Assembly: GCA_017991395.1 (NCBI GenBank)
Contig: JAGOQQ010000004.1
Location: forward strand, 32,430-96,429
DNA from: Minisyncoccota bacterium
GTDB taxonomy: Bacteria > Patescibacteriota > Minisyncoccia > Phycocordibacterales > UBA9973
DNA length: 64,000 nt
Direction: 5' to 3'
Positions 3,034 to 23,843 of the stretch are shown here, piece by piece. Positions within the stretch are counted from its first letter, which is position 1, and each line of letters begins with the position of its first letter. The notes beneath the pieces are model-generated. The model did not search any database. It saw nothing but the letters and a program-made list of their open reading frames with translations, and was not told the origin of the DNA. Made by a program: the position numbers and the translations under genes.

Positions 3034-3079
3034 TCTCAGGAGTGTCCGCCCACTTATTTAGCGTGTACCAACATATTAT

Positions 3080-4042: not shown

Positions 4043-4064
4043 TTATTAAATAAGCACGAGATAT

Positions 4065-4418: not shown

Positions 4419-4452
4419 TTTGCAAAAGTATAGTAAGGTAATACAACGAATC

Positions 4453-4797
4453 ATGAAATACACAATAGACGCAACAGAAAAGGCAATCGGACGAACCGCT
4501 AGTGAAGTGGCAATTTTGCTGATGGGTAAAAACGATACAAATTTTGTTAAAAACAAAGTTTCTGAAAACAAAGTAGAAATCGTAAACGCAAGTAAGGCAA
4601 AAATGTCTGAAAAGAAAGGGAAGACTGTATTTCATGAGACATACTCTGGATACCCAGGAGGATTTAAGGTCAAGTCAAATGAACAGATCGCAGCAAAGAA
4701 AGGATACGCAGAGCTTTTTAGACTTGCAGTATACGGAATGCTTCCAGGGAATAAACTCCGACCTATTATGATGAAAAACCTAACTATCAAAGAATAA
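4453..4797 (+). CDS. rplM: 50S ribosomal protein L13 (short form)
   Basis: YTIDATEKAIGRTASEVAILLMGK and AVYGMLPGNKL match L13. Start set at the internal MKYTIDA, since the track start at 4411 overlaps rplQ. Confidence 0.85.
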   Translation: MKYTIDATEKAIGRTASEVAILLMGKNDTNFVKNKVSENKVEIVNASKAKMSEKKGKTVFHETYSGYPGGFKVKSNEQIAAKKGYAELFRLAVYGMLPGNKLRPIMMKNLTIKE

Positions 4798-4798
4798 T

Positions 4799-5209
4799 AT
4801 GGAAGCAACAAAATCATCAAAGAAATATATTGAAAAAGTAGGACGACGAAAGACTTCAACAGCGCGGGTGCGAATACTTGAAGCTACAAAGTCATCACTT
4901 GTTGTCAATGAAAAAGAAGGAGAAAAATATTTTATGACAAAAGAACTTCTTTCTATCGTCAACGCACCGTTTGTAAACTCTGAAGTACCAAAGAAGTTTG
5001 CAGTGAGTGTCAAAGTTGTCGGTGGAGGAATTCACTCTCAAGCAGAAGCAGTACGACACGGACTTTCACGGGCACTTAGTGAATACAACGATGAACTTCG
5101 TTCACCACTTAAGAAAGCAGGATTCTTGAAGCGAGATCCACGAATGAAAGAACGACGAAAGTTCGGACTCAAGAAAGCTCGAAAATCTCCACAGTGGAGT
5201 AAGCGTTAA
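4799..5209 (+). CDS. rpsI: 30S ribosomal protein S9
   Basis: GGGIHSQAEAVRHGLSRAL is the S9 motif, and the C-terminus ends ...SKR. Confidence 0.95.
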   Translation: MEATKSSKKYIEKVGRRKTSTARVRILEATKSSLVVNEKEGEKYFMTKELLSIVNAPFVNSEVPKKFAVSVKVVGGGIHSQAEAVRHGLSRALSEYNDELRSPLKKAGFLKRDPRMKERRKFGLKKARKSPQWSKR

Positions 5210-5228
5210 TACAGATGTATACAAATAA

Positions 5229-5257
5229 AAGCACCCGAGAGGGTGTTTTTATTTTAT
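5229..5257 (+). terminator. Rho-independent terminator after rpsI
   Basis: Hairpin CACCCgagaGGGTG followed by a T-tract. Confidence 0.6.
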
Positions 5258-5294
5258 TGAAAAGAGTACAATTTTTAGTATAATAGTCATACTT

Positions 5295-5906
5295 ATGAAC
5301 AAAGATGATGAAATCAAAGACCAAGAGGAATTGGAAGTGCAAAACGTAGCTCCAGAAATCCCTGCAGAAGACGAGGATGATATTGTCGAATTTGTCTACA
5401 ACGAGGACGGAGAGGAAGACTTGAAAGCAACACTTAAAAAACTCAGAAAGGATATCAAAGAAGCTCGCAAGGAAAAAGCAGAGTATCTTGATGGATGGCA
5501 GAGAGCAAAAGCAGACTATCAAAATTATAAAAATGCAGAAGGTGAACGATTGGTATCGTATGCCGTAAATGCAAAGGAAAGATTGATTGATTCACTTTTG
5601 CCTGCACTTGATAGTTTTGATATGGCAATGTCCAACAAAGAAGCATGGGAAAAAGTTGATGCAAATTGGCGAACCGGCGTGGAATATATTTACAATCAAT
5701 TCATTACGTCACTTGGTGAAAATGGAGTGAGTACTATCGACAAGACAGATGTGCCATTTGACCCAAATCTCCATCAGTCTATCGAAACAGAAGACACAGA
5801 CGATGAATCAAAAGATCACACAATCGCACGAATCGTTCAAAAAGGTTACAAAATGGCTGACCGAATCATCCGCCCAGCGAGAGTGGTGGTGTATATAAAA
5901 AAATAA
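5295..5906 (+). CDS. grpE: Nucleotide exchange factor GrpE
   Basis: Acidic N-terminus and coiled coil (LKKLRKDIKEARKEKAEYLDGWQRAKADYQNYK). C-terminal beta domain with FDPNLHQSIE...GY.M.DRIIRPARVVV. Confidence 0.85.
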   Translation: MNKDDEIKDQEELEVQNVAPEIPAEDEDDIVEFVYNEDGEEDLKATLKKLRKDIKEARKEKAEYLDGWQRAKADYQNYKNAEGERLVSYAVNAKERLIDSLLPALDSFDMAMSNKEAWEKVDANWRTGVEYIYNQFITSLGENGVSTIDKTDVPFDPNLHQSIETEDTDDESKDHTIARIVQKGYKMADRIIRPARVVVYIKK

Positions 5907-6380
5907 ATGCTACGCATCAAGGAAGCACGAAACGGAAAAGGACTTTTTACTACCACAAAGTTGAACAAAAATGACTTTGTATTTAAAGTGGTTGGTCAAA
6001 AAGTGCATTTTGAGAAATTACTTGAAATAGAAGGTGATAGTTTAAACAACTCTTTTAGGTATTCACTCAATTATTACCTTATGCCTTCAAAAAAAGATTT
6101 GGCGTATTTTATAAATCACTCTTGTGAGCCGAATGTAAGAATAGTTCGAAAAAATAATGAGCTTGAATTTAGAGCACTACATGACATTAGTGCAAGTGAT
6201 GAAATAGTATTTGATTACTCAACCATCCTTGCAAAAGATGATATTTGGACAATGAAATGCAATTGCGGAGCATCTTGTTGTCGAAAAACAATAAAGCGAT
6301 ACGACAGACTACCAAAAAAAGTACTTTCAAAGTATCTTGATGAAAAAATGATTCCCGGATATATCCTCAAGCTCGGATAA
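5907..6380 (+). CDS. SET-domain protein (putative lysine methyltransferase)
   Basis: FINHSCEPNV is the SET signature NHSC.PN. It is followed by FDYS and a Cys cluster CNCGASCC (post-SET). The ATG directly abuts the grpE stop. Confidence 0.7.
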   Translation: MLRIKEARNGKGLFTTTKLNKNDFVFKVVGQKVHFEKLLEIEGDSLNNSFRYSLNYYLMPSKKDLAYFINHSCEPNVRIVRKNNELEFRALHDISASDEIVFDYSTILAKDDIWTMKCNCGASCCRKTIKRYDRLPKKVLSKYLDEKMIPGYILKLG

Positions 6381-6399
6381 CCTTAAATGAATCAAAAAA

Positions 6400-6433
6400 T
6401 TACGCATTTTACGCGATAGCGTAAAATGCGTAA
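6400..6433. terminator. Perfect 34-bp palindrome, likely a bidirectional terminator
   Basis: TTACGCATTTTACGCgatagcGTAAAATGCGTAA. Confidence 0.4.
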
Positions 6434-6499
6434 TTTTAAATACAAGAATATCTTCTTTATTCAATTACATTTATTTGTTTATAGTCAGAGAAAGTAATT

Positions 6500-6529
6500 G
6501 AGATCCTGAATCAAGTTCAGGATGACACA
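6500..6529. repeat. 30-bp palindromic repeat, left copy of an inverted pair flanking the PaaX-like gene
   Basis: gagatcctgaatcaagttcaggatgacaca. Its reverse complement recurs at 7241-7270 with one mismatch. Confidence 0.6.
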
Positions 6530-6633
6530 ATAAAAAAATGAGGTTGTATTGTGAGTTTGTATCTTTCCGCGTAGTTAAGGGAACACTTATGCAAAGCTCC
6601 GCGTAAAGTCCGCATTAGTAAGTCCGCGATGTG

Positions 6634-7185
6634 TTATTTCCCAAACAATTCAAACAAACTTTTCTTCGTCTCTTCGTCTACCTTGTCAGTTACAAAAATA
6701 ATCATTTCACTTGTAAATCCGAGATCTTTTTTTATATTAGTGAAGAGATGTTCATAAGGGAAAGGGGAAATCCACGCACTATTTTTTAAACATACAAATC
6801 CCGCTTTTTTGAGGAGGTAGCGCACCGCTTCGCGTTCGCTTTTTCGTTCTTCTGGAATATCGATTAGAATTATTCTCCAAAATCCATCCCATGTTGTGGA
6901 AACAAGAGCTCCTTCGGCTTCAAGTGTGATGCTGTGAAGTTTGTTTCGGCCTTCCTGTGTCATCCGGACATAGTCTTGATTGTCTGACTTGAGAATCTCT
7001 ACCATTCCAGATTCTACAAGATTCTTGATTGAGCGAGAAACAGCATATTCTTGCTTTTGGCTACTTGTATCAAAATCATTAGAAATAACCCTTCTTACCT
7101 CATTTTTGAGCTCTAGAATAGGCAATACAGTCTTTTTTGAAAGGGTTTTTAGGACTGTTTTGTTGATTTGGGGCTTTTTTTGCAT
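6634..7185 (-). CDS. PaaX-like winged-helix transcriptional regulator
   Basis: Motif block WDGFWRIILIDIPEERKSEREAVRYLLKKAGFVCLKNSAWISP is PaaX-family-like. The track start at 7248 runs into a repeat, so the start is moved to the internal MQKKPQ. Confidence 0.5.
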   Translation of the reverse strand: MQKKPQINKTVLKTLSKKTVLPILELKNEVRRVISNDFDTSSQKQEYAVSRSIKNLVESGMVEILKSDNQDYVRMTQEGRNKLHSITLEAEGALVSTTWDGFWRIILIDIPEERKSEREAVRYLLKKAGFVCLKNSAWISPFPYEHLFTNIKKDLGFTSEMIIFVTDKVDEETKKSLFELFGK

Positions 7186-7240
7186 ATGAGGTGATAGTGG
7201 AACGTAAAGCGTAGAACGTAGAACGCAAAATACAGGATTT

Positions 7241-7270
7241 TGTGTCATCCTGAACTTGTTTCAGGATCTC
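7241..7270. repeat. 30-bp palindromic repeat, right inverted copy
   Basis: tgtgtcatcctgaacttgtttcaggatctc. Confidence 0.6.
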
Positions 7271-7395
7271 AAGGTTTTTTAATCCTTCTCATTTTGAACG
7301 CGCATAAAATTCTGCTGAATTTTTGCTATGCTCGGCTCGTCAGCCTTGCGCAATGTTCAAAATGAGAAGGATTCTGGTTTGTGGAATCCAAAGCT

Positions 7396-7436
7396 TTACC
7401 CCTCCGCCCTTCGGGCACCTCCCCTCTAGGGGAGGC
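7396..7436 (+). repeat. GC-rich two-hairpin repeat element, copy A
   Basis: ttacccctccgcccttcgggcacctcccctctaggggaggc. One of six family members in the window. Confidence 0.7.
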
Positions 7437-7657
7437 TATAAACCCAATTTACCACTTTCCCACATATTTGCAAGAATTCAGCGGTCACGAAATACTTGTC
7501 AAAACCGTAAATATGAATATAATAGATGTATATCAGTTTATGAAAAGTTTTTAAATACTTTTAGCTTTAAAAAGTACAAGAGAAATTATTAGGAATTTAT
7601 AGCATTTTGTATTTAGCCAGTTGCTAGGCGCTAGATGCTAATTGCTGAAAAAAATAT

Positions 7658-9553
7658 ATGTCAAAAATAATTGGTATCGACTTGGGTACAACAAACAGTG
7701 CGGTCGCAATAATCGAAGGAGGAAATCCAAAGATTGTTGAGAATATCGAAGGATCACGCACCACACCGTCAATCGTTGGAATTGCAAAAAATGGTGATCG
7801 ACTTGCAGGACTTCTTGCAAAGCGACAAGCAGTAACAAATCCCGAAAACACAATTTACGGTATCAAAAGATTTATGGGTCATCATTTTGCTGATCCAGAA
7901 ATTCAGAAGGACCGAGGTGTAATGCCATACAAAATTCAGGAAGGAACAGATAAAGGTGTAGAAGTAAAACTCGGTGACAAGTTTATGCGACCAGAGGAAA
8001 TTTCTGCGATGATTCTTTCAAAGATCAAAGCTGATGTAGAAGCAAAACTTGGTGAAAAAGTTACCGAGGCAGTCATCACTGTGCCAGCATACTTCAATGA
8101 TGCACAACGAAAAGCAACAAAAGACGCCGGACAAATTGCAGGACTTGATGTGAAGCGTATCATCAACGAACCCACAGCAGCGGCACTTGCATACGGATTT
8201 AATTCAAAGAAAGATGAAAAGATTGTAGTGTACGACTTTGGAGGAGGAACATTTGATGTGTCTGTGCTTGAAGTATCTGGTGACGTGATCGAAGTGAAGT
8301 CGACAGATGGAGACTCGCACATGGGAGGACGAGATATTGATCGAAAAATCATAAATTGGATTGCAGACGAATTCAAAAAAGAATCTGGAATCGATGTAAC
8401 AAAAGATCCACTCGCACTTCAGCGTCTCGATGAAGCAGCTGAAAAAGCAAAACATGAACTTTCTACAACTCCTGAAACAGAAATCAATATTCCTTTCATC
8501 ACATCTGGTGCTGATGGACCAAAACACCTTCTTTTGAAGATGAGTAGAGCAACACTTGAATCACTTGCACAAGAATATGTGGATCGTTCAATCGAAATCA
8601 CGAAGCGCGCACTCGAAGCATCGCCATTTAAGATGAGTGAAATCAATGAAATCATTATGGTCGGAGGACAAACACGAATGCCGGCGATTGTGGATGCGGT
8701 CAAGAAATTCTTTGGTGGAAAAGAACCAAATCGTTCTATCAATCCAGACGAAGTAGTAGCACTTGGAGCAGCGGTGCAAGCTGGAGTGCTTCAAGGAGAT
8801 GTGAAAGATGTGCTTTTGCTCGATGTGATTCCACTTTCTCTCGGAATTGAAACACTTGGAGGAGTTGCGACAAAGCTTATCGAAAGAAACTCAACTATTC
8901 CAACTACAAAATCTCAAGTGTTTTCAACTGCAGCAGACAATCAAACATCGGTAGAAATTCACATCACACAAGGTGAACGTCCAATGGCAACAGACAACAA
9001 ATCTCTCGGACGATTTATTCTCGATGGGATTCCACCATCACCACGAGGTATTCCGCAGGTAGAAGTATCATTTGATGTTGATGCAAACGGTATCTTGCAA
9101 GTAAAAGCAAAAGACAAAGCTTCTGGAAAAGAACAGACAATTCGTATCGAAGCTTCATCAGGTCTTACAGATGAAGATATCAAAAAAATGCAATCAGATG
9201 CTGAAGCACATGCAGAAGAAGACAAGAAAAAGAAAGAAGTTGTGGATATCAAAAACACTGCAGAAATGACACTGTATACTGCTGAAAAATCTCTCAAAGA
9301 TGCTGAAGGAAAAGTGTCTGATGAAATAAAATCAGGAGTTCAATCAAAGATTGATGCAGTGAAAGCGGTAAAAGATGGAACTGATGGTAGTGCAATTATG
9401 AAAGCCACAGAAGAACTCTCAGCTGAGCTTTCAAAGATCGGCGAAGCGATGAACAAAGCACAAGAAGCACAACCTCAAGCAGAAACTCCTGCACAAGAAG
9501 AAAATGTGCGTGAAGCAGAAGTGAAAGAAGAGGGAAGTGAAGAAGCAAAATAA
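7658..9553 (+). CDS. dnaK: Chaperone DnaK (Hsp70)
   Basis: [14 protein letters not shown] and [10 protein letters not shown] motifs, with the full ATPase and substrate-binding domains. Confidence 0.97.
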
Positions 9554-11935: not shown

Positions 11936-12086
11936 TAAAAGGCAGGAGTTCAGAAGAGCGATAAGTGGAGAATAACTATAAGCGTAATATTTTTTAAAAC
12001 ACAAAGTTTATCTTGTGTCAATTTGACATTAATAATAAAAAAAGTATTATTATTAGTAATATGTTCAATCTATAAAAATAAATATC

Positions 12087-12278
12087 ATGATGAAAAGTTC
12101 TTTAAAACAAGAAACTCCTTACAAAAAGGTGCAACTTCCTGGCTTAGTCGGGGGTGGTTTAAAAAAATTGACAGGCAGAGTACCGCTCGTTTTAAAAAAA
12201 ATGGTTCGTTATCCTGGTGCTACTAGTTGGACGACTAGCGGTACTCATAACGATATTGATGGGTCTGACACAACTTGA
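12087..12278 (+). CDS. Candidate graspetide (microviridin-like) precursor peptide
   Basis: 63-aa ORF 78 nt upstream of the MdnC-like ATP-grasp and on the same strand. TTGACA at 12023 with a -10-like element near 12047. C-terminal Thr/Ser/Asp-rich stretch TSWTTSGTHNDIDGSDTT. Confidence 0.35.
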   Translation: MMKSSLKQETPYKKVQLPGLVGGGLKKLTGRVPLVLKKMVRYPGATSWTTSGTHNDIDGSDTT

Positions 12279-12355
12279 TAAAATATTTAACACACTATTA
12301 AAACACCTGCCTTTGTGGGTGTTTTGTTCATTTAAAACAGTATAAAAAAATAAAA

Positions 12356-13324
12356 ATGATATTAGCACTAGGTACATCGGCATCTCAAGATTTTGTTGCA
12401 TTTAAGGCAATAGAGAGTGAGTTAAAAAAACGAAAAAAGGAGATAATCTTATTCAAACAAGATTTATGTTTAAATAATGAAATTATTTCATATAAATTTA
12501 GCGAAAATGGTTCGTTTGTTCCATTAATTAATATTGAAGGAAAAAATTATGACATTGGCAGTTTTGAAGGCGCCATCAATCTTCACCCAATGCTTCCGAG
12601 AGAGCTCTTGGGTTTTTCAAAAATTAGCTTACGGCAATTTATCTGGAAACAATTTTATGAAATGCGTAGAGGTGTCTGGATGATTCTTAAAGATAAAAAA
12701 TGGCTAAATGATCCATTTAGTGCAGAGATGGCAGAGAATAAAGTATTTCAATTAGTTGCTGCTCAAAAAGTTGGGCTAACTATTCCGGCAACGCTAATTT
12801 CGTCATCTCCTTCAGATGTAAAAAATTTTTATTTAAAATGTGGCGGATTAATGATTAACAAAATTTTGTCTACTAGTCCAATTTTAGATAAAGTTACGTT
12901 TACTCACCTTGTTGATGAATGCGATATTGATGATAATTTGTCTATCCTCATTTCCCCAGCTATATTCCAGCCTCTTATTAAGAAAGAGTATGAATTAAGA
13001 ATAACTATAGTTGGAAATAAGTTGTTTTCAACCAAAATAAATTCACAGGAAAATTTGGCAACATCGATAGATTGGAGGGTTCATCCTGTAAAAAAGAAGT
13101 CATCTATACAAATGGAGCCGACTTTAATTCCACTAGAGCTAGAAGTTAAAATTCTTAATTTAATGAGACTATTAAACTTAAATTATGGTGCAGTTGACAT
13201 GATAGTCACACCACAAGGTGATTATGTGTTTCTCGAGATTAATCCATCAGGTCAGTGGTACTTTATACAAGAGAATACACGTTGCAATGATATTGCAAGT
13301 GCAATAGCAGATTTTTTATGCTAG
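12356..13324 (+). CDS. ATP-grasp RiPP maturase, MdnC/MvdD-like (graspetide ester/amide ligase)
   Basis: ELRITIVGNKLFSTKINSQ...DWR and LNYGAVDMIVTPQGDYVFLEINPSGQW match recalled microviridin ATP-grasp ligase MdnC segments (LRITIVG..INSQ..DWR; LNYGAIDMIVTP...FLEINP). N-terminal leader-binding region ILALGTSASQDFVAF. Confidence 0.8.
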   Translation: MILALGTSASQDFVAFKAIESELKKRKKEIILFKQDLCLNNEIISYKFSENGSFVPLINIEGKNYDIGSFEGAINLHPMLPRELLGFSKISLRQFIWKQFYEMRRGVWMILKDKKWLNDPFSAEMAENKVFQLVAAQKVGLTIPATLISSSPSDVKNFYLKCGGLMINKILSTSPILDKVTFTHLVDECDIDDNLSILISPAIFQPLIKKEYELRITIVGNKLFSTKINSQENLATSIDWRVHPVKKKSSIQMEPTLIPLELEVKILNLMRLLNLNYGAVDMIVTPQGDYVFLEINPSGQWYFIQENTRCNDIASAIADFLC

Positions 13325-13325
13325 T

Positions 13326-13811
13326 ATGGTAAACATGGTAATTCAATTACCATGTTTTTTTATGCAAAATAATATTTTACAGAACTTAATAAGTGAAATG
13401 TGTGAAATTGATCAAAAAACAAGAAAAATGGCTTTTGACCAAATTCAAAAAACAGGGGAAAGCTTCTCTATTTTTAATCTCATGATCTACTCTGTTGACG
13501 GCATTCATCAGCAGAGAATAAAACAAATTATAAAAGAATATGGTTATCCAACTAAAGAAAAAATTGGAGTAGATATTCTTAAGAAATTTTGGCTAATCGT
13601 TCAACATCAAGATATGGATGTATTTTTACAAAGAGAATGTCTGAAGAATTGTGATTTTGACATAGAAGAAAAGTCTCATCTGACGGATCGTGTCTTAATC
13701 AATGAGGGAAAAAAGCAAATGTATGGAACTCAGTTTTCGCAAGATATATCTGATGAAGACAGAATTATTTATAATAAAAACAGAGCAGAGGTCGGGTTGG
13801 TTGCTATATAG
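13326..13811 (+). CDS. Hypothetical protein, translationally coupled to the ATP-grasp
   Basis: Starts 2 nt after the ATP-grasp stop. No recognisable motifs. Confidence 0.45.
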   Translation: MVNMVIQLPCFFMQNNILQNLISEMCEIDQKTRKMAFDQIQKTGESFSIFNLMIYSVDGIHQQRIKQIIKEYGYPTKEKIGVDILKKFWLIVQHQDMDVFLQRECLKNCDFDIEEKSHLTDRVLINEGKKQMYGTQFSQDISDEDRIIYNKNRAEVGLVAI

Positions 13812-14020
13812 TTAACAGGAGGCACCAGAAATGGCGCTTTATGTATTGACAAAATAAGAAATAATGATATTATATAAACGTATGACATTTAGACATAAAA
13901 ACATTCGAAATATTGTGGCCCTCTCTGGGTACTGCAAACCAAATATTTTGGCTGGTTTTTGTGTTGTAAATTAAACTCACATTCTAAATTTTAGAACTCA
14001 AACACCAGCAAGAACTGCTG

Positions 14021-14626
14021 GTGTTTGTTCATTTAGAATTGAATATGAAAAATATCAAAACTCAATCAGTAATGTTTCTTCAAGGAAAGAGACTTTATCT
14101 GCGCCCTGTCGAGCGAAACGACATTCCTTTACTTCAAAAATGGATAAATGATCCAGAAGTAAGAAAATATCTCAATAATTCTTTTCCAATGTCATTAACA
14201 GACGAAGAAAAATATTTTGAAAGAATTTCGAATAGTTCGAAAAATGATGTTACTCTTGCGGTGGTAAGAAAGAAAGACAATGTACTACTTGGAAGTGTTG
14301 GTCTACATAAGATTGATTATATAAACGGCACTGCTTCTACGGGTTCAATGTATGGTAGAAAGTCGGAGTGGAACAAAGGGTATGCAACCGAAGCAAAAAT
14401 GATTTTGCTTGAGTATGCTTTTATGACACTTAATTTAAGGAAAATTTGCAGCGTTGCAATTTGTGGCAATATTGGGAGTATAAAACACAATATGAATTGT
14501 GGTTACAAGAAGGAAGGCATTAGGAAAAGTCATTATTTTCGTGACGGACAATATCATGACGCTGTGATGCTTGCGGTTTTCAAAAAAGATTGGGAAGAAG
14601 TTTTGAAGAAAAATTCAAAAAAATAA
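14021..14626 (+). CDS. GNAT family N-acetyltransferase (RimJ/RimL-like)
   Basis: KRLYLRPVERNDIPLLQKWINDPEV is the GNAT N-terminal pattern, and the acetyl-CoA-binding core is downstream. Terminator at 14632-14660. Confidence 0.7.
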   Translation: MFVHLELNMKNIKTQSVMFLQGKRLYLRPVERNDIPLLQKWINDPEVRKYLNNSFPMSLTDEEKYFERISNSSKNDVTLAVVRKKDNVLLGSVGLHKIDYINGTASTGSMYGRKSEWNKGYATEAKMILLEYAFMTLNLRKICSVAICGNIGSIKHNMNCGYKKEGIRKSHYFRDGQYHDAVMLAVFKKDWEEVLKKNSKK

Positions 14627-14715
14627 ACAGAAAAGGGCAGAGATGCCCTTTTTTTTATTTTTGACAAATAGAGTTTTTTGTTATATTATAATTAAAAATT
14701 AAAAACTAAATACAA

Positions 14716-15972
14716 ATGATAACACTACCTAAATTACCTGAAGTTCACATTGGAAAACTTTCCAATGGTATGAGATACGTCTTTGTTCCCGATAAAGGGA
14801 GCGGATTGATTCACGCTGAAGTGCTTGGATATGCCGGCTCAATACTGGAAACAGACCCAGGCACTTATGGAGTCTCTCATTTCCTTGAACATGTAGTTTG
14901 CAATGGTACAAAGAGTTTTCCTGATGAAGATGTACTTACTAATGAGTTTGATTTAATTGGAGCAAGTCGAAATGCAGTGACTGGTTTTACTACAAAAAGG
15001 TATCACCTTCAAACGGATTCTTCAAAAAGCAGAGAAGTAATAAAGTATATTTCTGAATGCATCCTTTGTCCAATTTTAGATAACACTATTATTGAAAGAG
15101 AAAGGTTGGTAATTCAAAGCGAGTTAAAAGATTCTCTTTCTAAGCCATTAGTGCGTGGGAGTATGAACTCTAGAAAAAAGTCGTTTGATCTTGCTCGTTT
15201 ACACGAACATAATCTTGGGACACATGAATCAATTGCAAATATCAAAAGAGATGATCTAATAAATTTTCACCAAAAATTTTATATGCCTTCAAATTTTATA
15301 TTTGGAGTTATGGGTGACATTGATCATTTGGAACTAGTGAGTATTCTAGAAGATGAAATCGGATTCGCACCAAGTGGTAATACGCAAAGTAAAATTTGGG
15401 TTGAGCACAAAAAGAATGGTAAATTTATTTCTTCTGATAAAGGCATCGAAAATTCATCAGTTGAAATCTGTTGGCCACTAACTCAAGAGCAAATATTACA
15501 CGATTACCACAACATATGTAAGCTAATTTCTGTTCTTGGGTCAATGAGAAGGTCAAGACTCTATAGGGTATTAAGAGAAAAACTCTCATCTGTGTACGGT
15601 GTGCATATGGGTTTATCCGGATACAGTAGCTTCAGTTCGTTTTGTTCGATCGATACATCGACAGACAGAGATTCTGTTGATGCTGTCATTGATGCATCTA
15701 TTGAATGTGTGAGATCTTTCTTAAATGATGGGCCTACTGAGAAGGAGATTACGCAGAGCATTAACCAAACAGTATTTTGGATGAAGAAAGAAATGGCTAA
15801 TAAAATGTCTGTACTCAAAAATACAATGGGTGACGTCCTATTTAATCCAAACTTCGTATCTGTAGAAAATGAAATAAATAAATTATTGTCATTTGAAAAA
15901 GATGAGTCGATTGAGGCATTCCGCTCGTGTATTAAGGGAGATCCAGTGATTATAGTTAGAAATCCTGTTTAA
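14716..15972 (+). CDS. M16 (pitrilysin) family zinc peptidase
   Basis: Inverted zinc motif HxxEH in GVSHFLEHVV near the N-terminus. Size fits one M16 unit. Confidence 0.65.
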   Translation: MITLPKLPEVHIGKLSNGMRYVFVPDKGSGLIHAEVLGYAGSILETDPGTYGVSHFLEHVVCNGTKSFPDEDVLTNEFDLIGASRNAVTGFTTKRYHLQTDSSKSREVIKYISECILCPILDNTIIERERLVIQSELKDSLSKPLVRGSMNSRKKSFDLARLHEHNLGTHESIANIKRDDLINFHQKFYMPSNFIFGVMGDIDHLELVSILEDEIGFAPSGNTQSKIWVEHKKNGKFISSDKGIENSSVEICWPLTQEQILHDYHNICKLISVLGSMRRSRLYRVLREKLSSVYGVHMGLSGYSSFSSFCSIDTSTDRDSVDAVIDASIECVRSFLNDGPTEKEITQSINQTVFWMKKEMANKMSVLKNTMGDVLFNPNFVSVENEINKLLSFEKDESIEAFRSCIKGDPVIIVRNPV

Positions 15973-16002
15973 AATTTACAGCACCAGAAATGGTGCTTTT
16001 TA

Positions 16003-16545
16003 TTATTTTCTTTTAATCAAATAACCCAGTACATTCCAGTGTATTTTGTCTCCATTATACAAAAATCCGTCATATTCGAGATTGTTTTTGTAGATCACAG
16101 TATAATCAGTAAATTTTTCTAAATGAGAATCAATTGTTTCCTGTGAGAGAAGTGAAAGTTTTTTTCTATCATCATTCTCTCCGAAAAATGTAACAAATAT
16201 AATTTTCCCCGCTATTAATATTTTTGAGAGATTCACAAGGGGTTCTTTTGTGAAAGGAAGTGTGTGTCTGCATACCACTAAATCGTACACGTCAGTTAAG
16301 AGAAATTCTGGTTCAGTAATATCTTGTTTAATGAATTTGAAGTCATCATTATTTCCATCAATTAAATCCTCTTTGTCTAATAGAGTTATTGATTTCAAGC
16401 CTTGCTGTTTAAAATGCCGGGCAAGGTTTGTATCTCGCGCGCCAATGTCGATTAGAGATTCTTTTATTTCTGTCTGTGTTAGCTTTAAAGCTTGAAGTAA
16501 ATCATTCATAGTAAGATTATAGCAATTTATATACATTTTCACCAC
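16003..16545 (-). CDS. Class I SAM-dependent methyltransferase
   Basis: IDIGARDTNLARHF (motif I-like), SITLLDKED (acidic end of beta-2), DLVVCRHTL (motif II). Confidence 0.55.
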   Translation of the reverse strand: MVKMYINCYNLTMNDLLQALKLTQTEIKESLIDIGARDTNLARHFKQQGLKSITLLDKEDLIDGNNDDFKFIKQDITEPEFLLTDVYDLVVCRHTLPFTKEPLVNLSKILIAGKIIFVTFFGENDDRKKLSLLSQETIDSHLEKFTDYTVIYKNNLEYDGFLYNGDKIHWNVLGYLIKRK

Positions 16546-16666: not shown

Positions 16667-17227
16667 ATGAAAAAGCTAAATTCAGAAGTGTGGGGAAAGG
16701 TTAAAAATATTGACCTCTCACAAATCCTCGTTAGACTAGTTGTAAAACAAAAATGGTCAATAGAGCGAGCAACGGAAGCAATTGAACAGTATAGGCAGTT
16801 CTTGTATTGCTGTGTAGTATTCCCAGGATCATCTTTAGAGCCAACAAGTGAAGTAGATGTTGTGTGGCATGATCATATACTTCATATGAAAAAGTACAAT
16901 GAGGACTGTATCAAATTATGTGGACGGTTGATATTACATGAGCCTTATCCTGTCAATGAAGATGTTGCGAGTGAAATTTTTAAAGCATGCAAGAAGACAG
17001 GTGGTGATTGTCGACTTGAATCTGCTGATCGAGGTGAAGAAACAAACCCTATTCTGATTATTGATGATAAAATCAAAACAGAAATTATCGCAACTAGAAC
17101 AGCTGAATGCACAGGAGATTGCCAGGCAACTACTGGTTGTCAAGAACCACCACCTGCCGACTGCGCATTAAATCGCAATTCTAAAAAAATGGATTTTAAA
17201 AAAATTAGAGCTGAAATTTTTGCTTAA
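16667..17227 (+). CDS. Hypothetical protein; N-terminal region resembles DUF1399 (EVDVVWHDHILH), C-terminus Cys-rich
   Basis: Motif recollection only. C-terminal CTGDCQATTGCQ cluster. Confidence 0.4.
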   Translation: MKKLNSEVWGKVKNIDLSQILVRLVVKQKWSIERATEAIEQYRQFLYCCVVFPGSSLEPTSEVDVVWHDHILHMKKYNEDCIKLCGRLILHEPYPVNEDVASEIFKACKKTGGDCRLESADRGEETNPILIIDDKIKTEIIATRTAECTGDCQATTGCQEPPPADCALNRNSKKMDFKKIRAEIFA

Positions 17228-17346: not shown

Positions 17347-18261
17347 ATGACATGGTTTTTATACGCACTCGGGGCGCCAATATTGTGGGCACTTGTAAAT
17401 ATCGCCGATCAATATCTTGTGAATAAACACGCAAAAGGCGAACATCCAGTTGGTGCACTCGTGTTGTTTTCAAGTCTCGTGGGAATTGTGGTGTCTTTCA
17501 TAATCGCACTTTTTACCAAAGGTATTTTTGATATAAGTTTACACGATAAGATAATTTTGATTATTTCAGGGTTCTTCTCACTTGGATGGATAATTCTTTA
17601 TCTCAAAGCATTGGAAATCGAGGATGTGTCGTCTGTTGTGCCATGGTTTTTGACTATTCCAGTATTTGGATATATTTTTGCGTATTTTTTTCTTGGTGAG
17701 ACTCTTACACAAACACAAATGATTGGAAGTGCAATAGTGTTGTTTGGAGGGCTAATACTTTCACTTGAATTTAGTGAAGAAAACAGAGTCAAATTTAAAG
17801 GCAAAATCGCATTGATGATGATTGTCTCATGTATATTTGCAGCATTGTGGGGCGTTTTGTTTAAATTTGTCACCGTGGAGGAACAATTTTGGGTATCCTC
17901 ATTTTGGGAATATATTGGACTCGGACTCGCAGGATTGATTATATGGATATTTGTTCGATCATACAGAAATGCGTTTTCTCATATGATTAAAGTTGGAGGT
18001 AAAAACATATTTGCACTCAATGTCACCAGTGAGAGCGTAACGATGGGAGGGAATTTCATGAACAATTTTGCACTTCTTTTGGCTCCTGTAACGCTCGTTT
18101 TTCTAGTAGCAACATTTCAGCCAATTATTGTACTCGTGCTAACTTTTCTTTGTACTAAATTTTTTCCTTGGATTGTTGAGGAAAAATTTCACTTTCGACA
18201 CATTGCACCAAAACTCGTTGCAATAGGTGTGATGGTAGTGGGGAGCATGTTGTTTTTTTAG
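17347..18261 (+). CDS. EamA/DMT-family membrane transporter
   Basis: About ten hydrophobic helices in two repeated halves, typical of DMT permeases. Confidence 0.55.
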   Translation: MTWFLYALGAPILWALVNIADQYLVNKHAKGEHPVGALVLFSSLVGIVVSFIIALFTKGIFDISLHDKIILIISGFFSLGWIILYLKALEIEDVSSVVPWFLTIPVFGYIFAYFFLGETLTQTQMIGSAIVLFGGLILSLEFSEENRVKFKGKIALMMIVSCIFAALWGVLFKFVTVEEQFWVSSFWEYIGLGLAGLIIWIFVRSYRNAFSHMIKVGGKNIFALNVTSESVTMGGNFMNNFALLLAPVTLVFLVATFQPIIVLVLTFLCTKFFPWIVEEKFHFRHIAPKLVAIGVMVVGSMLFF

Positions 18262-18382: not shown

Positions 18383-18631
18383 ATGTCGAAAAATTCGTCG
18401 TCTGATAATGGAGATGGTACATCATCGTTTATAAGCGGACCAACAAACCACAACAGTAACTCAAGTCAAGGATCTTCAATACAAAGTGATAAATACACTA
18501 TAAACAATGAGGATAAGGGCAAGCCGGACACTCCAAAAGTTCATGAATATTCTGGAAGAAGTCATGATAAAGGAGTTTCTTATGAAGGAGGTCGTGGTGA
18601 AAATTATAACACTAACGATAGTGGAAAATAA
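18383..18631 (+). CDS. Small Ser/Asn/Gly-rich hydrophilic protein
   Basis: Strong Shine-Dalgarno sequence aaggaggataaggaaATG. Low-complexity composition. Confidence 0.4.
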   Translation: MSKNSSSDNGDGTSSFISGPTNHNSNSSQGSSIQSDKYTINNEDKGKPDTPKVHEYSGRSHDKGVSYEGGRGENYNTNDSGK

Positions 18632-19157: not shown

Positions 19158-19727
19158 TTAAGGGGTTAGCATTCTTTTAACAAAAGTATTTTTATAAAAA
19201 TTATCCTTATATACTGCAAATACTAATAAATCTACATACACATTTTCTCCTGCACTTGTATGATTTTTAAATCTAGCTTCAATGGGCAGGCCAAGTTTCT
19301 CGAAAATCTCCATAGATTCATTATTGTTTTCGTGAACCTCGCAATAAACTTTCCTACATTTAAGTGTTTCGAATAAAAAATTACATCCAAGTATAAACAT
19401 TTCAGCTCCATAGTAATGCGACTTTCTGTATTTTTCAGAAACAAAGGTTGTTGTATATCCAGTTAAATTTTGCTTATTGAATCGATAAATCCAGCTTGTA
19501 CCTATCGCGCTGTTTCTGGTGTTCCGTGCAATAAAATGTACATATCTATCATTTTTATATGCTTTTGAGATTTCGTCATCAAGCTCGTTTAGTGTGCATT
19601 TTTTAGAATAGGACATGCAATTACTTTGAAACGTTTCCGTGTTTCTCCATTCAAGCAGAACAGGGAGATCATCTCTGTTGATTTCAGTCAGGATGAGTCT
19701 TTTTCCATTGATATTCAAATTTTCCAT
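19158..19727 (-). CDS. GNAT family N-acetyltransferase
   Basis: KRLILTEINRDDLPVLLEWRN N-terminal pattern, and GNAT core YGAEMFILGCNFLFETLKCRKVYCEV. Confidence 0.6.
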   Translation of the reverse strand: MENLNINGKRLILTEINRDDLPVLLEWRNTETFQSNCMSYSKKCTLNELDDEISKAYKNDRYVHFIARNTRNSAIGTSWIYRFNKQNLTGYTTTFVSEKYRKSHYYGAEMFILGCNFLFETLKCRKVYCEVHENNNESMEIFEKLGLPIEARFKNHTSAGENVYVDLLVFAVYKDNFYKNTFVKRMLTP

Positions 19728-19912: not shown

Positions 19913-20263
19913 ATGGAAAGTATTGAAGAAAAAACATATAAGCTAAGTAGCACCGACAAATTTTTGATGGTTGTTTTTATTGTCTTAATTGGAAGTGCTT
20001 TTATCTCTAATTTTTACCATTTCTATATAAACAAGAATTACACATATATTATTGAAACAGAATGTGATTCAGAGTTTGAAACTTGCTATATAGGAGAGGA
20101 TGATGGAGGGCAATTTTTTTATAATGTCAAGACCATTAATGCATACGATTTTTCAGCGTGTAGTGATAATTCTTGCACAAATGAATGTACAAGTGGCTTT
20201 TTAGAATGCATCACCATTCCATGCGGGACAGATCCTGCTGATGTTTGTTCAAAGAATGAATAA
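19913..20263 (+). CDS. Small Cys-rich protein with N-terminal membrane anchor
   Basis: One transmembrane helix (FLMVVFIVLIGSAFI), then 10 Cys in 70 residues (ECDSEFETCY...CSDNSCTNECTSGFLECITIPCG). Confidence 0.4.
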   Translation: MESIEEKTYKLSSTDKFLMVVFIVLIGSAFISNFYHFYINKNYTYIIETECDSEFETCYIGEDDGGQFFYNVKTINAYDFSACSDNSCTNECTSGFLECITIPCGTDPADVCSKNE

Positions 20264-21107
20264 TAAAATGATTAAAGAAAATTTAGATTTTCATACTGAC
20301 ATCGTATATAGTGACGAAATTAAAGAACAGGTTGAATATCTGATGAAAAATCGTGATGCATTTGATTCGTATGTATATACCTCCGTTGATGAAATTCTTA
20401 ATACTAATAAGTCAGTGCAAATCGAATGCAAAAAAAAGGTTGATTATATACTCAATCCTAATATTAAAAGCAAGTTAAATGGTATTTTATTTAGACAAAT
20501 AAATACACCAAATTACGAAACTCGACGATTTCATCAAATTTGTGAGGGGTATGGAATCAAGCCTTTTTTTGTTCAGTATAAAGAGGATAAATTTACTTCA
20601 AATAACTCACTTAAACGAAGTTACGGAAAAATACCCTGTGTGGTTGGTACTGATAAAAATGGGCAGTACATTATAAACTATGTCAATGTAATAGATTTTA
20701 ATCAAAGTAACGGTAAGAAAATTTCTGATATAAAGACATTACAAGGTGAAAATTTAGTTGAACTACACAATAAACTCTTGTTAGATCAAATACCTTCAAT
20801 CCATGAAAGTTCACTTGTGGAGGCCTCACGATGGTTCAAGAACAATGGTGATTGTGCAGGAAAGTATTATCTCAATTTATTGCTAAATTTTCAGACAGAC
20901 ACTTTTCTATTTGATAATTTTTCATTAAATGGAGAAGAGGAAGTATTTACCAGGAACGTTTTTTTGCCAACATTGATTCACATTAGAAATACGTATGGAA
21001 TAAAACCTATCATTATTGCTTTGGAGCCAACGGAGATTGAGAATAATTTGTTTTGGATTGCTCAGACTCCGGAAGTTTATAGTATAATTAAAAAATACAA
21101 TGATTGA
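20241..21107 (+). CDS. Hypothetical protein
   Basis: Overlaps the upstream gene by 23 nt and the downstream kinase by 8 nt, so they form an operon. Confidence 0.4.
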   Translation: MFVQRMNNKMIKENLDFHTDIVYSDEIKEQVEYLMKNRDAFDSYVYTSVDEILNTNKSVQIECKKKVDYILNPNIKSKLNGILFRQINTPNYETRRFHQICEGYGIKPFFVQYKEDKFTSNNSLKRSYGKIPCVVGTDKNGQYIINYVNVIDFNQSNGKKISDIKTLQGENLVELHNKLLLDQIPSIHESSLVEASRWFKNNGDCAGKYYLNLLLNFQTDTFLFDNFSLNGEEEVFTRNVFLPTLIHIRNTYGIKPIIIALEPTEIENNLFWIAQTPEVYSIIKKYND

Positions 21108-22725
21108 AAATACCTGCACTTTATACGGGAGTGCATATCACACAATTGCATATTATTCTCATCTCGTGCCGGCATTTCTTATAGGAACTCTGGCTGTTTT
21201 GATTTTAATGAAAAACAGAAGTTCATTAATAATCACATTTTGTTTATTTACCGCAACATTTATCTTGTGGTTGCTTGGAGATCTTATAGCCTGGACATCG
21301 CCAAATTACAATCTGATTTCTGCCGTGTGGTCATCACTTGATTTACTCAACATACTTTTTTATATTTTTGGTGCATATTTTTTTACGACACTAGTCAGCG
21401 GAAAAGATGTCAGTTTGTGGATAAAGGTTGCTATTGTGCTGGTGACATTGCCTGCTTGGTATATTACAGTTTCAAATATTAGTATTTCTTCATTCTACTT
21501 GCCTCAGTGTGAAGCAATCAATAATACCTTTCTTACAAATTACAAGATATTAATTGAAGCACTTGTAGTCTTGTTCATTGTTATATATGGTTACATTAAA
21601 TCACGAAAACTGGAGCCAGTTAGAAGAAAAAAAGTTGCACTTGTTGCAGCTGGGCTTATTTTATTCTTTGCAACATTTTCTGTAACTGAATTTATAGCTA
21701 GTCAAACAGGTATATATGAAATAAACTTGTATAGCCTTTTCGTCCTACCTGTTTTCCTTGGAATGATTATTTATGCAACAGTTTCTATGAATATATTCCA
21801 ACTCAAAATTATTGGCGAGCAGGCAATGATTTATGTACTTTTGATTATGGTCGGCTCTCAAATGTTCATACTTGAGAATAGGGACAACAGAATACTTTCG
21901 GTTATTACATTCCTGTTATCATTATTCTTTGCATATGTGTTACTTCAGAGTTCACGAAGAGAAGCAATGGCAAAGCGACACATTGAAGAACTCGTATTCC
22001 AACTCGAAGAAGCAAACTCAAAATTGCATGATCTCGACAAGATGAAAACAGAATTCCTCTCACTCGCATCTCATCAGCTTCGTAGTCCACTTACCGCAAT
22101 CAAGGGTTATGCATCGATGCTTCTTGAAGGTTCGTATGGGCAAATCGTCCCAGAACAAAAAGTACCAGTAGATCGAATCTTTCAATCAAGTGTAAACTTG
22201 GCGCAAATCGTGGAAGACTTGCTTGATGTGTCAAAAATGGAACAAGGTGGAATGAAATTCGAAATGGCAGACGTGGACCTAGTGGGAATCTTGAAAGGTC
22301 TGACAAATGAGCTTCAGGTTTCTGCAAAAAGTCGAAATCTTGATCTTGTGTTCGAAACAAATCTTACAGAAGCAATTGTGGAAGTAGACTCAGTAAAAAT
22401 TCGTCAAGTGTTTGCAAACTATGTAGACAATGCACTCAAGTATACAGAAAAAGGAACAGTCAAAATCTCAATTGCAAAATCAGATGACGGAAAAAAGATT
22501 GTGGTTGGAGTCAAGGATTCAGGAATGGGTATTCCTCCAGAGATTATGAAAACACTCTTCAAAAAGTTTGAACGTGGAGAGGGCGGAAAGGTCAACGCGG
22601 GAGGTTCAGGACTTGGGCTATATCTCGCAAAAGAAATCGTCAACGCACACAAAGGACGCACTTGGGCTGAATCAGAAGGACGAGGCAAGGGAAGTACATT
22701 TTTTGTGGAGCTTAGTTTGAAATAA
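21100..22725 (+). CDS. Membrane-bound sensor histidine kinase (orphan; no response regulator nearby)
   Basis: N-terminal multi-transmembrane sensor region. HisKA H-box LSLASHQLRSPLTAIKGY. HATPase_c region with GGSGLGLYLAKEIVNAHKG. Confidence 0.8.
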   Translation: MIENTCTLYGSAYHTIAYYSHLVPAFLIGTLAVLILMKNRSSLIITFCLFTATFILWLLGDLIAWTSPNYNLISAVWSSLDLLNILFYIFGAYFFTTLVSGKDVSLWIKVAIVLVTLPAWYITVSNISISSFYLPQCEAINNTFLTNYKILIEALVVLFIVIYGYIKSRKLEPVRRKKVALVAAGLILFFATFSVTEFIASQTGIYEINLYSLFVLPVFLGMIIYATVSMNIFQLKIIGEQAMIYVLLIMVGSQMFILENRDNRILSVITFLLSLFFAYVLLQSSRREAMAKRHIEELVFQLEEANSKLHDLDKMKTEFLSLASHQLRSPLTAIKGYASMLLEGSYGQIVPEQKVPVDRIFQSSVNLAQIVEDLLDVSKMEQGGMKFEMADVDLVGILKGLTNELQVSAKSRNLDLVFETNLTEAIVEVDSVKIRQVFANYVDNALKYTEKGTVKISIAKSDDGKKIVVGVKDSGMGIPPEIMKTLFKKFERGEGGKVNAGGSGLGLYLAKEIVNAHKGRTWAESEGRGKGSTFFVELSLK

Positions 22726-22838: not shown

Positions 22839-23843
22839 ATGGAGAAAAAACTTTTAATAATTAGCAATTCTGATGAATTGTATTATTACAAACCCGTTAT
22901 TAAGGTTATTAATGAGATTTACAATCACGATGTGTATGTATTTGATTTCAATCAATATCCACGCACTGCGACAATGTCGGTGTCATTAAGTAATAGCAGG
23001 AAAGTGTGTGGGTCACTCAAAACGACACAGTGGAGTAAAGGGCAATCAAGAAAAGGTGTCATGCTTGAAATTAATGATGTATTTAAAGTGTGGCCGATAC
23101 GCATTGGTAATACCAATATAAGCCCTGAACTAGATCCTGTCTCTGCTTTTTTTGCAAAAAAGCAGGCGCACTATGCGATTGAGTCTTTGCTTGCACTTTT
23201 TGAGTGTGAGGTAATAAATCCTCCACGTATCGCTAGATTTGTACAGCACAATAAGTTATATCAATTAGAAATTGCAAAATGGGCAGGATTATCGATTCCC
23301 GATACACTAGTATCATCCAATTATTCTGATGTGTGTGAGTTTGCAGAAAAATGTGGTGGTAGTATGTTAGTAAAATCAATATACACAATGCCGTTCTTAA
23401 ACGAAGACACCAAGGAAATGTTTGGTATATATTCAAGTATTATTACAAAAAGAGAACTTACTTCCTTTTCAGTAAAAGCTTGTCCAAATATCTATCAAGC
23501 ATATATTGAAAAGAAAGTGGAACTACGGATTTCGTACGCCAATGGGAAAATTATGACTTGTTCCATTGATTCGCAATTAAGCGAAAAAACCAAGATTGAT
23601 TGGCGTAATTATGACTTTGGTAATGTTAAACATACTACTTACAAATTACCTAAAGACATTCAGAGAACACTTGTAAAATATATGACACGCATAGGGTTAA
23701 AGTATGGGCAAATAGACATGATACTTACCCCTAATGACGAGTATGTATTTTTGGAAGTAAATCCGTCTGGGCAATGGGGATGGATTCAAGGATTGACTGG
23801 CCTTGAGATTGATCATTCAATTGCTAAGATGCTCATTGAATAG
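22839..23843 (+). CDS. Second ATP-grasp RiPP maturase, MdnB/MdnC-like
   Basis: VELRISYANGKIMTCSIDSQ...DWRNY and LKYGQIDMILTPNDEYVFLEVNPSGQW. N-terminus LLIISNSDELYYYKPVIKVINEI. Paralogous to the 12356 ATP-grasp gene. Confidence 0.8.
   Translation: MEKKLLIISNSDELYYYKPVIKVINEIYNHDVYVFDFNQYPRTATMSVSLSNSRKVCGSLKTTQWSKGQSRKGVMLEINDVFKVWPIRIGNTNISPELDPVSAFFAKKQAHYAIESLLALFECEVINPPRIARFVQHNKLYQLEIAKWAGLSIPDTLVSSNYSDVCEFAEKCGGSMLVKSIYTMPFLNEDTKEMFGIYSSIITKRELTSFSVKACPNIYQAYIEKKVELRISYANGKIMTCSIDSQLSEKTKIDWRNYDFGNVKHTTYKLPKDIQRTLVKYMTRIGLKYGQIDMILTPNDEYVFLEVNPSGQWGWIQGLTGLEIDHSIAKMLIE

Follow-up and report, generated by a model that had tools for sequence, protein, structure and literature searches.

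A probable three-gene graspetide operon with a DUF6624 partner in a Candidatus Pacebacteria genome

The locus at positions 12087–13811 of a 64-kb stretch of DNA (the window), taken from a metagenome-assembled genome of Candidatus Pacebacteria, a member of the candidate phyla radiation (CPR; Patescibacteria), is very probably a minimal three-gene graspetide operon. It was composed of a precursor peptide gene (12087–12278), a graspetide-type ATP-grasp ligase gene (12356–13324), and a gene encoding a DUF6624 protein (13362–13811), all on the + strand. Graspetides are macrocyclic peptides that inhibit proteases or show other bioactivity, and they belong to the RiPPs, peptides that the ribosome makes and that are modified after translation. 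The ligase protein was 100% identical to the NCBI entry KBC42_00745, and the gene order of the locus was recovered independently in assemblies from several sequencing runs. A preliminary description of the window had placed a larger microviridin- or graspetide-like cluster here, in which a GNAT, an M16 peptidase, and a methyltransferase followed a candidate precursor, a ligase, and a coupled unknown gene. Every open reading frame (ORF) that it named was present at its position; it got the core of the cluster right, drew the boundaries wrongly, and overstated the rarity. CPR genomes are very small and hold few recognisable secondary-metabolite pathways, so that a retained peptide pathway probably matters for the symbiotic or parasitic lifestyle. 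The locus overturns nothing known. It is a clean, minimal, and tractable example, three genes in 1.8 kb, of a cluster type flagged by two surveys, and it could help reveal the role of DUF6624, which is among the most frequent unexplained proteins associated with graspetides.

The ligase (322 residues) contained an N-terminal pre-ATP-grasp domain, which binds the leader in this family, and its assignment was based on profile, PDB, and Foldseek matches. Among the NCBIfam models, MvdC matched with an E-value of 3e-53 (residues 9–321 on model positions 6–316 of 318), followed by MvdD (3.7e-52), the SAV_5884 type (6.8e-48), and the grasp-with-spasm type (7.8e-33), versus only 1.6e-8 for the RimK family model. 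The best PDB sequence matches were CdnC (7MGV), MdnB (5IG8), AMdnB (7M4S), and MdnC (5IG9), with E-values of about 1e-33 to 1e-34. The AlphaFold2 model, built with 25 homologues, had a pLDDT of 93 and a pTM of 0.90. Foldseek aligned about 325 columns of this model with AMdnB (E-value of 1.9e-28), CdnC, and MdnC, and the three structures matched over the full length with template modelling (TM) scores of 0.80–0.84, the value for MdnC being 0.84. MdnB, PruB, and PsnB came next in the ranking, and RimK appeared only at 3.6e-15. The ligase kept the family invariants Lys169, Lys210, Glu213, Arg215, Asp239-Trp240-Arg241, Asp281, Glu294, and Asn296, among them those of the DWR motif and of the E-x-N in FLEINP. 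The motifs named in the preliminary description, ELRITIVG, DWR, LNYGAVDMIVTP, and FLEINPSGQW, were all found, and the MdnC-like nature that it had proposed agreed with the profile scores and with the structural comparison to MdnC (5IG9).

The ATP-grasp could instead be a non-RiPP ligase of the RimK or glutathione-synthetase type, and the small upstream ORF a chance frame. Such a ligase would be in keeping with the lack of a Pfam match at an E-value of 0.01 and with the name 'glutathione synthase/RimK-type ligase-like' that some databases give to the homologues. However, the RiPP-maturase models beat RimK by 45 orders of magnitude, Foldseek put six graspetide ligases ahead of RimK, and the peptide encoded by the small ORF was kept across loci whose ligases were only 35–50% identical. 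The profile scores, the precursor conservation, and the structural ranking effectively refute this alternative, which is highly improbable. A RimK-type best match without a leader-binding domain, which had been named beforehand as the outcome that would speak against a graspetide ligase, was looked for; the best matches were graspetide ligases and the domain was present.

The precursor gene (12087–12278, + strand) encoded 63 residues, with the leader VPLVLKKMV, a conserved Gly-Ala, and the core TTSGTHNDIDGSDTT, and the C-terminal end of the peptide was ...GATSWTTSGTHNDIDGSDTT. The leader corresponded to a recognition motif of the Phhx(1,2)h type. Relative loci were fetched and numbered (L001, L010, and so on), and 87 ATP-grasp loci were searched in total. 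In about 20 independent genome or metagenome loci, a small co-directional ORF homologous to the precursor was located 5' of ligases with 35–50% identity to the window ligase. These ORFs shared the leader motif [VLMK]-P-[LF]-[IV]-L and stopped, without exception, 15–17 residues past the first Thr or Ser of the core. The precursor of the closest relative, L010, was 66% identical over 38 residues. Because it is conserved in related loci, the 12087–12278 ORF is far more than a chance ORF, and the candidate precursor of the preliminary description proved to be a real gene.

The precursor homologues were mostly unannotated. One pipeline called a 62-residue gene for the precursor, and on a homologous contig the precursor gene was omitted from the NCBI annotation and called by JGI. 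An exhaustive phmmer search with the 63-residue peptide against 1.84 billion representative proteins returned, besides the peptide itself, only two true relatives. Another two hits, both large, were rejected as false positives, being repeat proteins with an acidic PGAxE...DGIDxDCDGSD repeat. The acidic repeat PGATE...DNGIDEDCDGSD of large repeat proteins of the metal-binding type, such as P0243 (591 residues, from this search), resembles YPGAT...DIDGSD of the precursor and gives rise to false positives, and repeats of this kind call for caution when the precursor family is mined by motif. No extra copy of the core was found elsewhere in the 64-kb window.

The core consensus of the subfamily containing the window precursor was G-A-x-x-x-T-T-[ST]-G-T-x-x-[DN]-[IV]-D-x-x-D-x-x, and that of a sister subfamily (L023–L027) was ...G-G-T-[ST]-x-G-T-x-[DS]-E-[PC]-D-S-x-G-x-D. 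Counted from the first core Thr, residues Thr1, Thr/Ser2, Gly4, and Asp10 were universal in both subfamilies. Thr5 was replaced by Ala in L008 only, and position 3 was variable. One acidic residue was found at position 7 or 8 across both subfamilies, and the third acidic residue was Asp13 in the window subfamily, whereas a C-terminal Asp took this part in the sister subfamily. Lys is missing from the core, and therefore only ester rings, and no lactams, are expected. The core would form two or three rings, and a nested arrangement of Thr5–Asp8, Thr2–Asp10, and Thr1–Asp13 is a guess.

The third gene of the locus encoded a DUF6624 (PF20329) protein, and the match of the whole frame (13326–13811) to the Pfam model had an E-value of 3e-11 and 43.5 bits, with a cut-off of 27. 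The frame is open from 13326, but translation probably begins at the ATG at 13362 (149 residues; + strand), because the homologues begin at Met13 and a hairpin with a T-run (13331–13357) precedes it. In an alignment of 105 sequences, Gln30, Pro75, Gly81, Gln93, His94, Gln102, Leu119, Asp121, Arg122, Gly134, Thr135, and Gln136 were invariant, and Asp29, Arg33, Asp58, Asp96, Asp98, Cys105, and Arg153 were nearly so. The window protein had all 12 invariant columns, which it does by construction of the alignment. This conservation pattern looks enzyme-like. The structural model was confident and all-alpha, with no solved structural relative. The CPR versions, including that of the window, had no signal peptide, while versions from Planctomycetota and other non-CPR bacteria carry one. 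Domain fusions of DUF6624 were looked for and discarded: they comprised only TPR-like or weak alpha/beta-hydrolase-like N-terminal extensions and signal peptides, and an apparent 822-residue fusion in L020 was a read-through into BipA. One non-CPR member, P0190, had weak TPR matches, below the cut-off, in its N-terminal extension.

The small ORF, the ligase, and DUF6624 were adjacent and co-directional in L001–L027, and DUF6624 was nearly always located directly 3' of the ligase. An unbiased Pfam census covered the 124 ORFs that lay no more than 3 kb from the ligase in 22 non-redundant close loci, and DUF6624 was the sole enriched neighbour, with 19 hits. The runners-up were the generic methyltransferase family Methyltransf_31 (four hits), transposases (three), and histidine-kinase domains (three). 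Thus the coupled unknown gene of the preliminary description exists, and although it had been passed over there, it is the true conserved partner.

A promoter-like site (TTGACA, 16 nt, TATTAT; 11 of 12 matches) was found by consensus scan at 12023–12050 on the + strand, 37 nt 5' of the precursor start, and by this pattern match it may serve as the promoter. The total of promoter-like sites in the region was no higher than the shuffled expectation. A stem-loop of 12 bp and −13 kcal/mol (12299–12326, + strand), placed after the stop codon of the precursor and ahead of the ligase start, is proposed as a leaky terminator or attenuator. In 17 of 18 related loci a stem-loop occupied the same position, with different stem sequences and often with a T-run after it. 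Taken alone, the window hairpin had a modest z-score of −1.27, and the case rests on the kept position. A leaky terminator that tunes how much precursor is made relative to enzyme would be expected to keep its position and structure but not its sequence, as seen here. Such terminators between precursor and enzyme genes are familiar from other RiPP operons.

Two further stem-loops were located downstream. One (13331–13357, + strand), with a 12-bp stem followed by the T-run TTTTTTAT, lay between the ligase stop and the likely DUF6624 start. The other, a perfect 12-bp stem-loop 3' of DUF6624 (13999–14027, + strand), possibly marks the end of the operon. The motif AACACC...GGTGTTT(T)GTTCATTTA, whose second copy is in this last hairpin, occurred exactly twice in the 64 kb (12302–12334 and 14001–14035), with 0 copies expected. 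One copy followed the precursor, and the other followed DUF6624 just 5' of the GNAT start. The attenuator of L010 had the same basal stem as this hairpin motif. In an Rfam scan of the hairpins, nothing came near the gathering scores. Upstream of the last hairpin, a promoter-like site close to the consensus (TTGACA, 16 nt with TG, TATTAT) was seen at 13846–13873, followed after about 10 nt by a 30-residue ORF, MTFRHKNIRNIVALSGYCKPNILAGFCVVN (13882–13974). The element at 13846–13976 could be a leaderless small gene, the 5' untranslated region of the GNAT gene, or chance.

Based on these features, a sigma-70-like promoter would transcribe the precursor, and the stem-loop past the precursor stop would let part of the transcripts into the enzyme genes, giving an excess of precursor. 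The leader VPLVL would dock on the ligase's N-terminal pre-ATP-grasp domain, by homology to the MdnA–MdnC pair (5IG9). With ATP, the ligase would convert the Asp carboxylates of the core to acyl-phosphates, as in the chemistry of the family, and Thr hydroxyls would attack these to form two or three omega-ester (macrolactone) rings without lactams. Judged by conservation, the likely ring partners are Thr1, Thr2, and Thr5 with Asp8, Asp10, and Asp13, in a possible nested hairpin. DUF6624 would act in the cytoplasm, with the ligase or on the peptide, possibly as a partner or scaffold, as a peptidase for the leader, as a further tailoring enzyme, or in self-protection. Cleavage of the leader would take place close to the conserved Gly-Ala, which lies five residues ahead of the core.

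The three genes that had been added to the cluster in the preliminary description carried correct family labels, as Pfam confirmed. The GNAT matched Acetyltransf_3 (7e-25), the M16 protein had the motif HFLEH and matched M16 (1e-15) and M16_C (2e-24), and the class I methyltransferase matched Methyltransf_23 weakly (1.7e-5, below the Pfam cut-off). Their proposed part in the pathway was not supported, since they were not conserved partners in either the 87-locus phmmer search or the 22-locus census. In the 87 loci, phmmer found no homologue of the window methyltransferase, found the M16 protein in L018 only, and found the GNAT in the distant L061 only. The GNAT and M16 families were outside the top 25 of the census, with at most one occurrence each. 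Furthermore, the GNAT gene and the M16 gene each came with a separate promoter-like site and were each followed by a terminator-like hairpin; the methyltransferase gene was on the opposite strand, convergent with M16. Therefore these genes are treated as independent neighbours in a low-GC (guanine plus cytosine) accessory island.

An extended cluster, in which the GNAT would N-acetylate the product as MdnD does, M16 would remove the leader, and the methyltransferase would work in the same pathway, nevertheless has some attractions. All three genes are located within 3.2 kb downstream, GNAT and M16 on the same strand, and M16 has an intact HxxEH motif and a weak NCBIfam match to PqqF (1.3e-7). 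M16 peptidases process some other RiPPs, PqqF being an example. An M16 gene also follows the ligase in L018 (1–4059), in L089 a precursor-like ORF and DUF6624 lie between an Acetyltransf_3 GNAT and a methyltransferase, and metallopeptidases and UbiE-like methyltransferases occur in some CPR loci (PMC8939145). However, L018 is disrupted: a DDE transposase (321–1226, − strand) splits the precursor (66–212) from the ligase (1314–2318), DUF6624 is missing, and the downstream M16 peptidase (2821–4059) is only distantly related to that of the window (phmmer score of 57). The GNAT of L089 was 28% identical to the window GNAT, which is a family-level resemblance, and its methyltransferase was unrelated (E-value of 0.32). 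A second Acetyltransf_3 GNAT is present 5 kb off in the window, so that this family is simply common here. Together with the near-absence of the three genes from the 87 loci and the census, the pairwise comparison with L089 ruled them out as conserved cluster parts. The extended cluster is accordingly unlikely, and it is likewise unlikely that one of the three proteins acts on the peptide in this genome.

Several points weigh against the three-gene operon. The NCBIfam scores of the ligase were all under the equivalog cut-offs and its Pfam scan was empty at an E-value of 0.01, and for these reasons it is read as a divergent lineage. The promoter and terminator calls were consensus matches only, and no protease or exporter gene was present in the three-gene module. 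The M16 gene near the module in L018, and the GNAT beside a precursor-like ORF and DUF6624 in L089, leave a small chance of an optional role for these genes. In two close loci, L008 (2625–3053) and L011 (6009–6431), the ligase was followed by another protein of 141–142 residues for which Pfam gave no match. The N-terminal LLKxFHxxDQxxR of this protein is reminiscent of the DQxxR motif in DUF6624, and the protein may either be DUF6624 in a strongly diverged form or have taken its place. The association was one-sided: a graspetide-type ATP-grasp was nearby in only 13 of 50 evaluable DUF6624-centred loci, although in six of the eight closest relatives, and this weakens the idea of a dedicated biosynthetic enzyme. 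Finally, this cluster and others resembling graspetide group 42, described below, are known from bioinformatics alone, and both the number of rings and their topology are guesses.

The module could be real and DUF6624 not be biosynthetic, but a self-protection or peptide-degrading protein, such as an esterase or a binder, that is also kept as an orphan by non-producers. The 74% of sampled DUF6624 genes without a nearby ATP-grasp would suit such a protein, as would the lack of an enriched partner family beside the standalone genes (maximum of 2 of 125 ORFs) and the enzyme-like pattern of conserved His, Asp, and Arg residues. In addition, the signal peptides of the non-CPR members and the lipoprotein signals of 'cluster 23' (PMC8939145; see below) would place the protein outside the cytoplasm, where the mature peptide would be. 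On the other hand, the CPR versions have no signal peptide and are encoded directly 3' of, and co-directional with, the ligase, a graspetide ligase that depends on a partner protein (MirC) is on record, and the fold has no structural relative that points to a hydrolase. A non-biosynthetic DUF6624 is a possibility with an appreciable chance, though not the favoured one.

A different setting for DUF6624 was seen in L089 (Curtissbacteria, 2562–8505). The gene order there was a radical S-adenosylmethionine/SPASM-like gene, GNAT, a 37-residue ORF, DUF6624, a methyltransferase, a seven-transmembrane (7TM) histidine kinase, and a response regulator. The 37-residue ORF, MEPEIFAALCAVELVDQSHQVGGSWTTGSGTGSDPDD with the tail …VGGSWTTGSGTGSDPDD, resembled a graspetide precursor, and no ATP-grasp was found within 5 kb. 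L089 may represent a different RiPP context for DUF6624, and it suggests, in a single lineage, a link of DUF6624 with the peptide and not with the ligase.

A second graspetide-type ATP-grasp, absent from the preliminary description, was located at 22839–23843 (+ strand, 334 residues), 9.5 kb from the first. It matched MvdC (4.5e-55), MvdD (4.2e-53), and RimK (1.8e-10), was 36% identical to the 12356–13324 ligase over 212 residues, and belonged to a different lineage, with no adjoining DUF6624 gene. A convergent 69-residue ORF, MKTSSKQAVRESKITVFNESLLRNKRKPLLIGQLKPIPTQTSPGVCAAAGCHTHYATGVKSDYKFDEGD (24738–24947, − strand), had the graspetide-type leader KPLLIGQLKPIP and the acidic tail SDYKFDEGD. 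Small ORFs whose leaders read P-h-h-x-x-h-x-[EK]-K-P and whose acidic tails were of the DY...D kind were also found close to relatives of the second ligase (L076, 3570–3794; L098, 1867–2109), and a small ORF was similarly convergent in L027 (370–573). These features are suggestive of the 69-residue ORF as the candidate precursor of the second ligase. Directly 5' of the second ATP-grasp, the gene at 21100–22725 (+ strand) encoded a multi-pass-membrane histidine kinase. By raw count, about 12 fetched loci (L017, L023, L025, L037, L038, L069, L080, L083, L089, L091, L099, and L155) had homologues of it, of the HisKA_7TM type, within a few kb of an ATP-grasp or a DUF6624 gene, and this recurrence may reflect peptide-linked two-component regulation.

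More speculatively, DUF6624 might be a new class of peptide-processing enzyme or an obligatory ligase partner, with an unseen all-alpha fold, that acts on peptides of the TTxGT...DxD type. It is hinted at by the near-obligate adjacency to the ligase clade, by the invariant His, Asp, Arg, and Gln residues, and by the precursor beside DUF6624 in L089. The two modules of the island and the recurrent 7TM histidine kinase might additionally form a peptide-signalling or conflict circuit of an episymbiotic CPR bacterium. We consider this whole proposal rather doubtful.

The island containing both ATP-grasps is flanked by dnaJ and cysS. The GC content was 0.29–0.36 across 12–21 kb, versus 0.43 in dnaJ and about 0.40 in cysS, in agreement with the low GC noted previously, and the window was also low in GC at 47–52 kb. 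Other island genes encoded a GRDP-like/UCP032817-like protein with a Cys-rich tail (16667–17227), an EamA transporter (17347–18261) that was 43% identical to the EamA protein encoded directly 3' of DUF6624 in L069, an 82-residue ORF rich in Ser, Asn, Gly, and Asp (18383–18631), the second Acetyltransf_3 GNAT (19158–19727, − strand), a 116-residue protein with a transmembrane segment and a Cys-rich part (19913–20263), and proteins of 288 residues (20241–21107) and 279 residues (23861–24700, − strand). Homologues of the 82-, 116-, 147-, 186-, 279-, and 288-residue proteins of the island were absent from all fetched loci. DUF6624 and the unknown ORFs of the island gave no match in the PADLOC defence-system library and, in a phage library, a single weak match to a PHROG of unknown function.

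When compared with the microviridin system (MdnA–MdnE; 5IG8 and 5IG9), the module shares the fold of the ligase together with its N-terminal domain for leader binding (TM score of 0.84 to MdnC), and, as predicted for the window side, the omega-ester chemistry between Thr/Ser and Asp/Glu. The leaders PFFARFL of microviridin and PLVLKKM of the window share an alpha-helical P-h-h-x-x-h motif. However, the microviridin core TxKYPSDWEE, with its motif TxKxPSDx(E/D)(E/D), has no counterpart here, and the window core TTSGTHNDIDGSDTT contains neither Lys nor PSD and so would form no lactam. Microviridin clusters use two ligases, the ester-forming MdnC and the amide-forming MdnB, whereas one ligase was present in the module. 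DUF6624 stands in place of the conserved GNAT (MdnD) and the ABC transporter (MdnE) of microviridin; the neighbouring GNAT is not conserved, and no ABC transporter was found. Thus the earlier label of a microviridin/graspetide-like RiPP locus stands for a graspetide with a real precursor and an MdnC-like ligase, and falls for microviridin proper.

A precedent for a ligase partner is rosaritide (group 21), whose synthetase depends on the protein MirC and whose product has three macrolactones (PMC13097080). As in the window, a small, strictly co-occurring, non-enzymatic-looking protein is encoded beside the ligase, which provides a precedent for a possible role of DUF6624. MirC is a divergent peptidyl-prolyl isomerase of the PpiC type and is unrelated to DUF6624.

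Graspetide clusters of CPR bacteria were assigned to branches 1 and 2 of the ATP-grasp tree by Makarova et al. 2022 (PMC8939145); the leaders showed the signature Phhx(1,2)h, an uncharacterised protein in which His and Arg are conserved ('cluster 23') was ubiquitous, and many branch 2 loci were left without an identified precursor. The window locus has the same hosts, leader signature, and Thr...Asp cores, and its core was absent from the 174 precursor clusters of that study. The 'cluster 23' protein fits DUF6624 by description and is often a predicted lipoprotein, whereas the CPR DUF6624 proteins have no signal peptide. As CPR graspetide clusters were reported in 2022 (PMC8939145) and 2026 (PMC13097080), the earlier view that such a pathway is unusual in a reduced genome was overstated.

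Carter, Ramesh, Saad, Mubarik and Mitchell (ACS Chem Biol 2026; PMC13097080) expanded RODEO and described 43 graspetide groups. DUF6624, named in that paper alone in the literature searched, was frequent in groups 18, 20, 23, and 42 and was considered to be possibly a biosynthetic enzyme of a class not yet discovered. Group 42 contained 22 predicted biosynthetic gene clusters, many from candidate phyla, with PF20329 in 82% and no other co-occurring family; like the CPR branches, it is known from bioinformatics only (PMC13097080, PMC8939145). The window module has the same architecture of precursor, synthetase, and DUF6624 in a Patescibacteria host, and its synthetase likewise co-occurs with PF20329 and no other family. 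The group 42 representative precursor, MKKNSTPKPLILDRLRQPIEDIYKGGEKAMEGFTTHGTPNDPDSGGTD (...KPLIL...GFTTHGTPNDPDSGGTD), has the leader KPLIL in place of VPLVL, and its core FTTHGTPNDPDSGGTD shares 8 of 15 positions with WTTSGTHNDIDGSDTT of the window (TTxGTxND.D...T), a comparison with the single published representative. The precursors of L023–L027 resemble this representative, and their ligases form a sister clade of the window ligase, with about 35% identity and phmmer scores of about 170–185 bits. The window subfamily has the core TT[ST]GTxx[DN][IV]DxxDxx with its third acidic residue at position 13, whereas the group-42-type core (...D.DSxGxD) ends in Asp. No TTSGT-type precursor was found in the searched part of the dataset of Carter et al. 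2026. Judged by its architecture and by the resemblance to the single published precursor, the window module would be either a member of group 42 or its sister, and it possibly represents a new precursor subfamily of this bioinformatically known cluster type.

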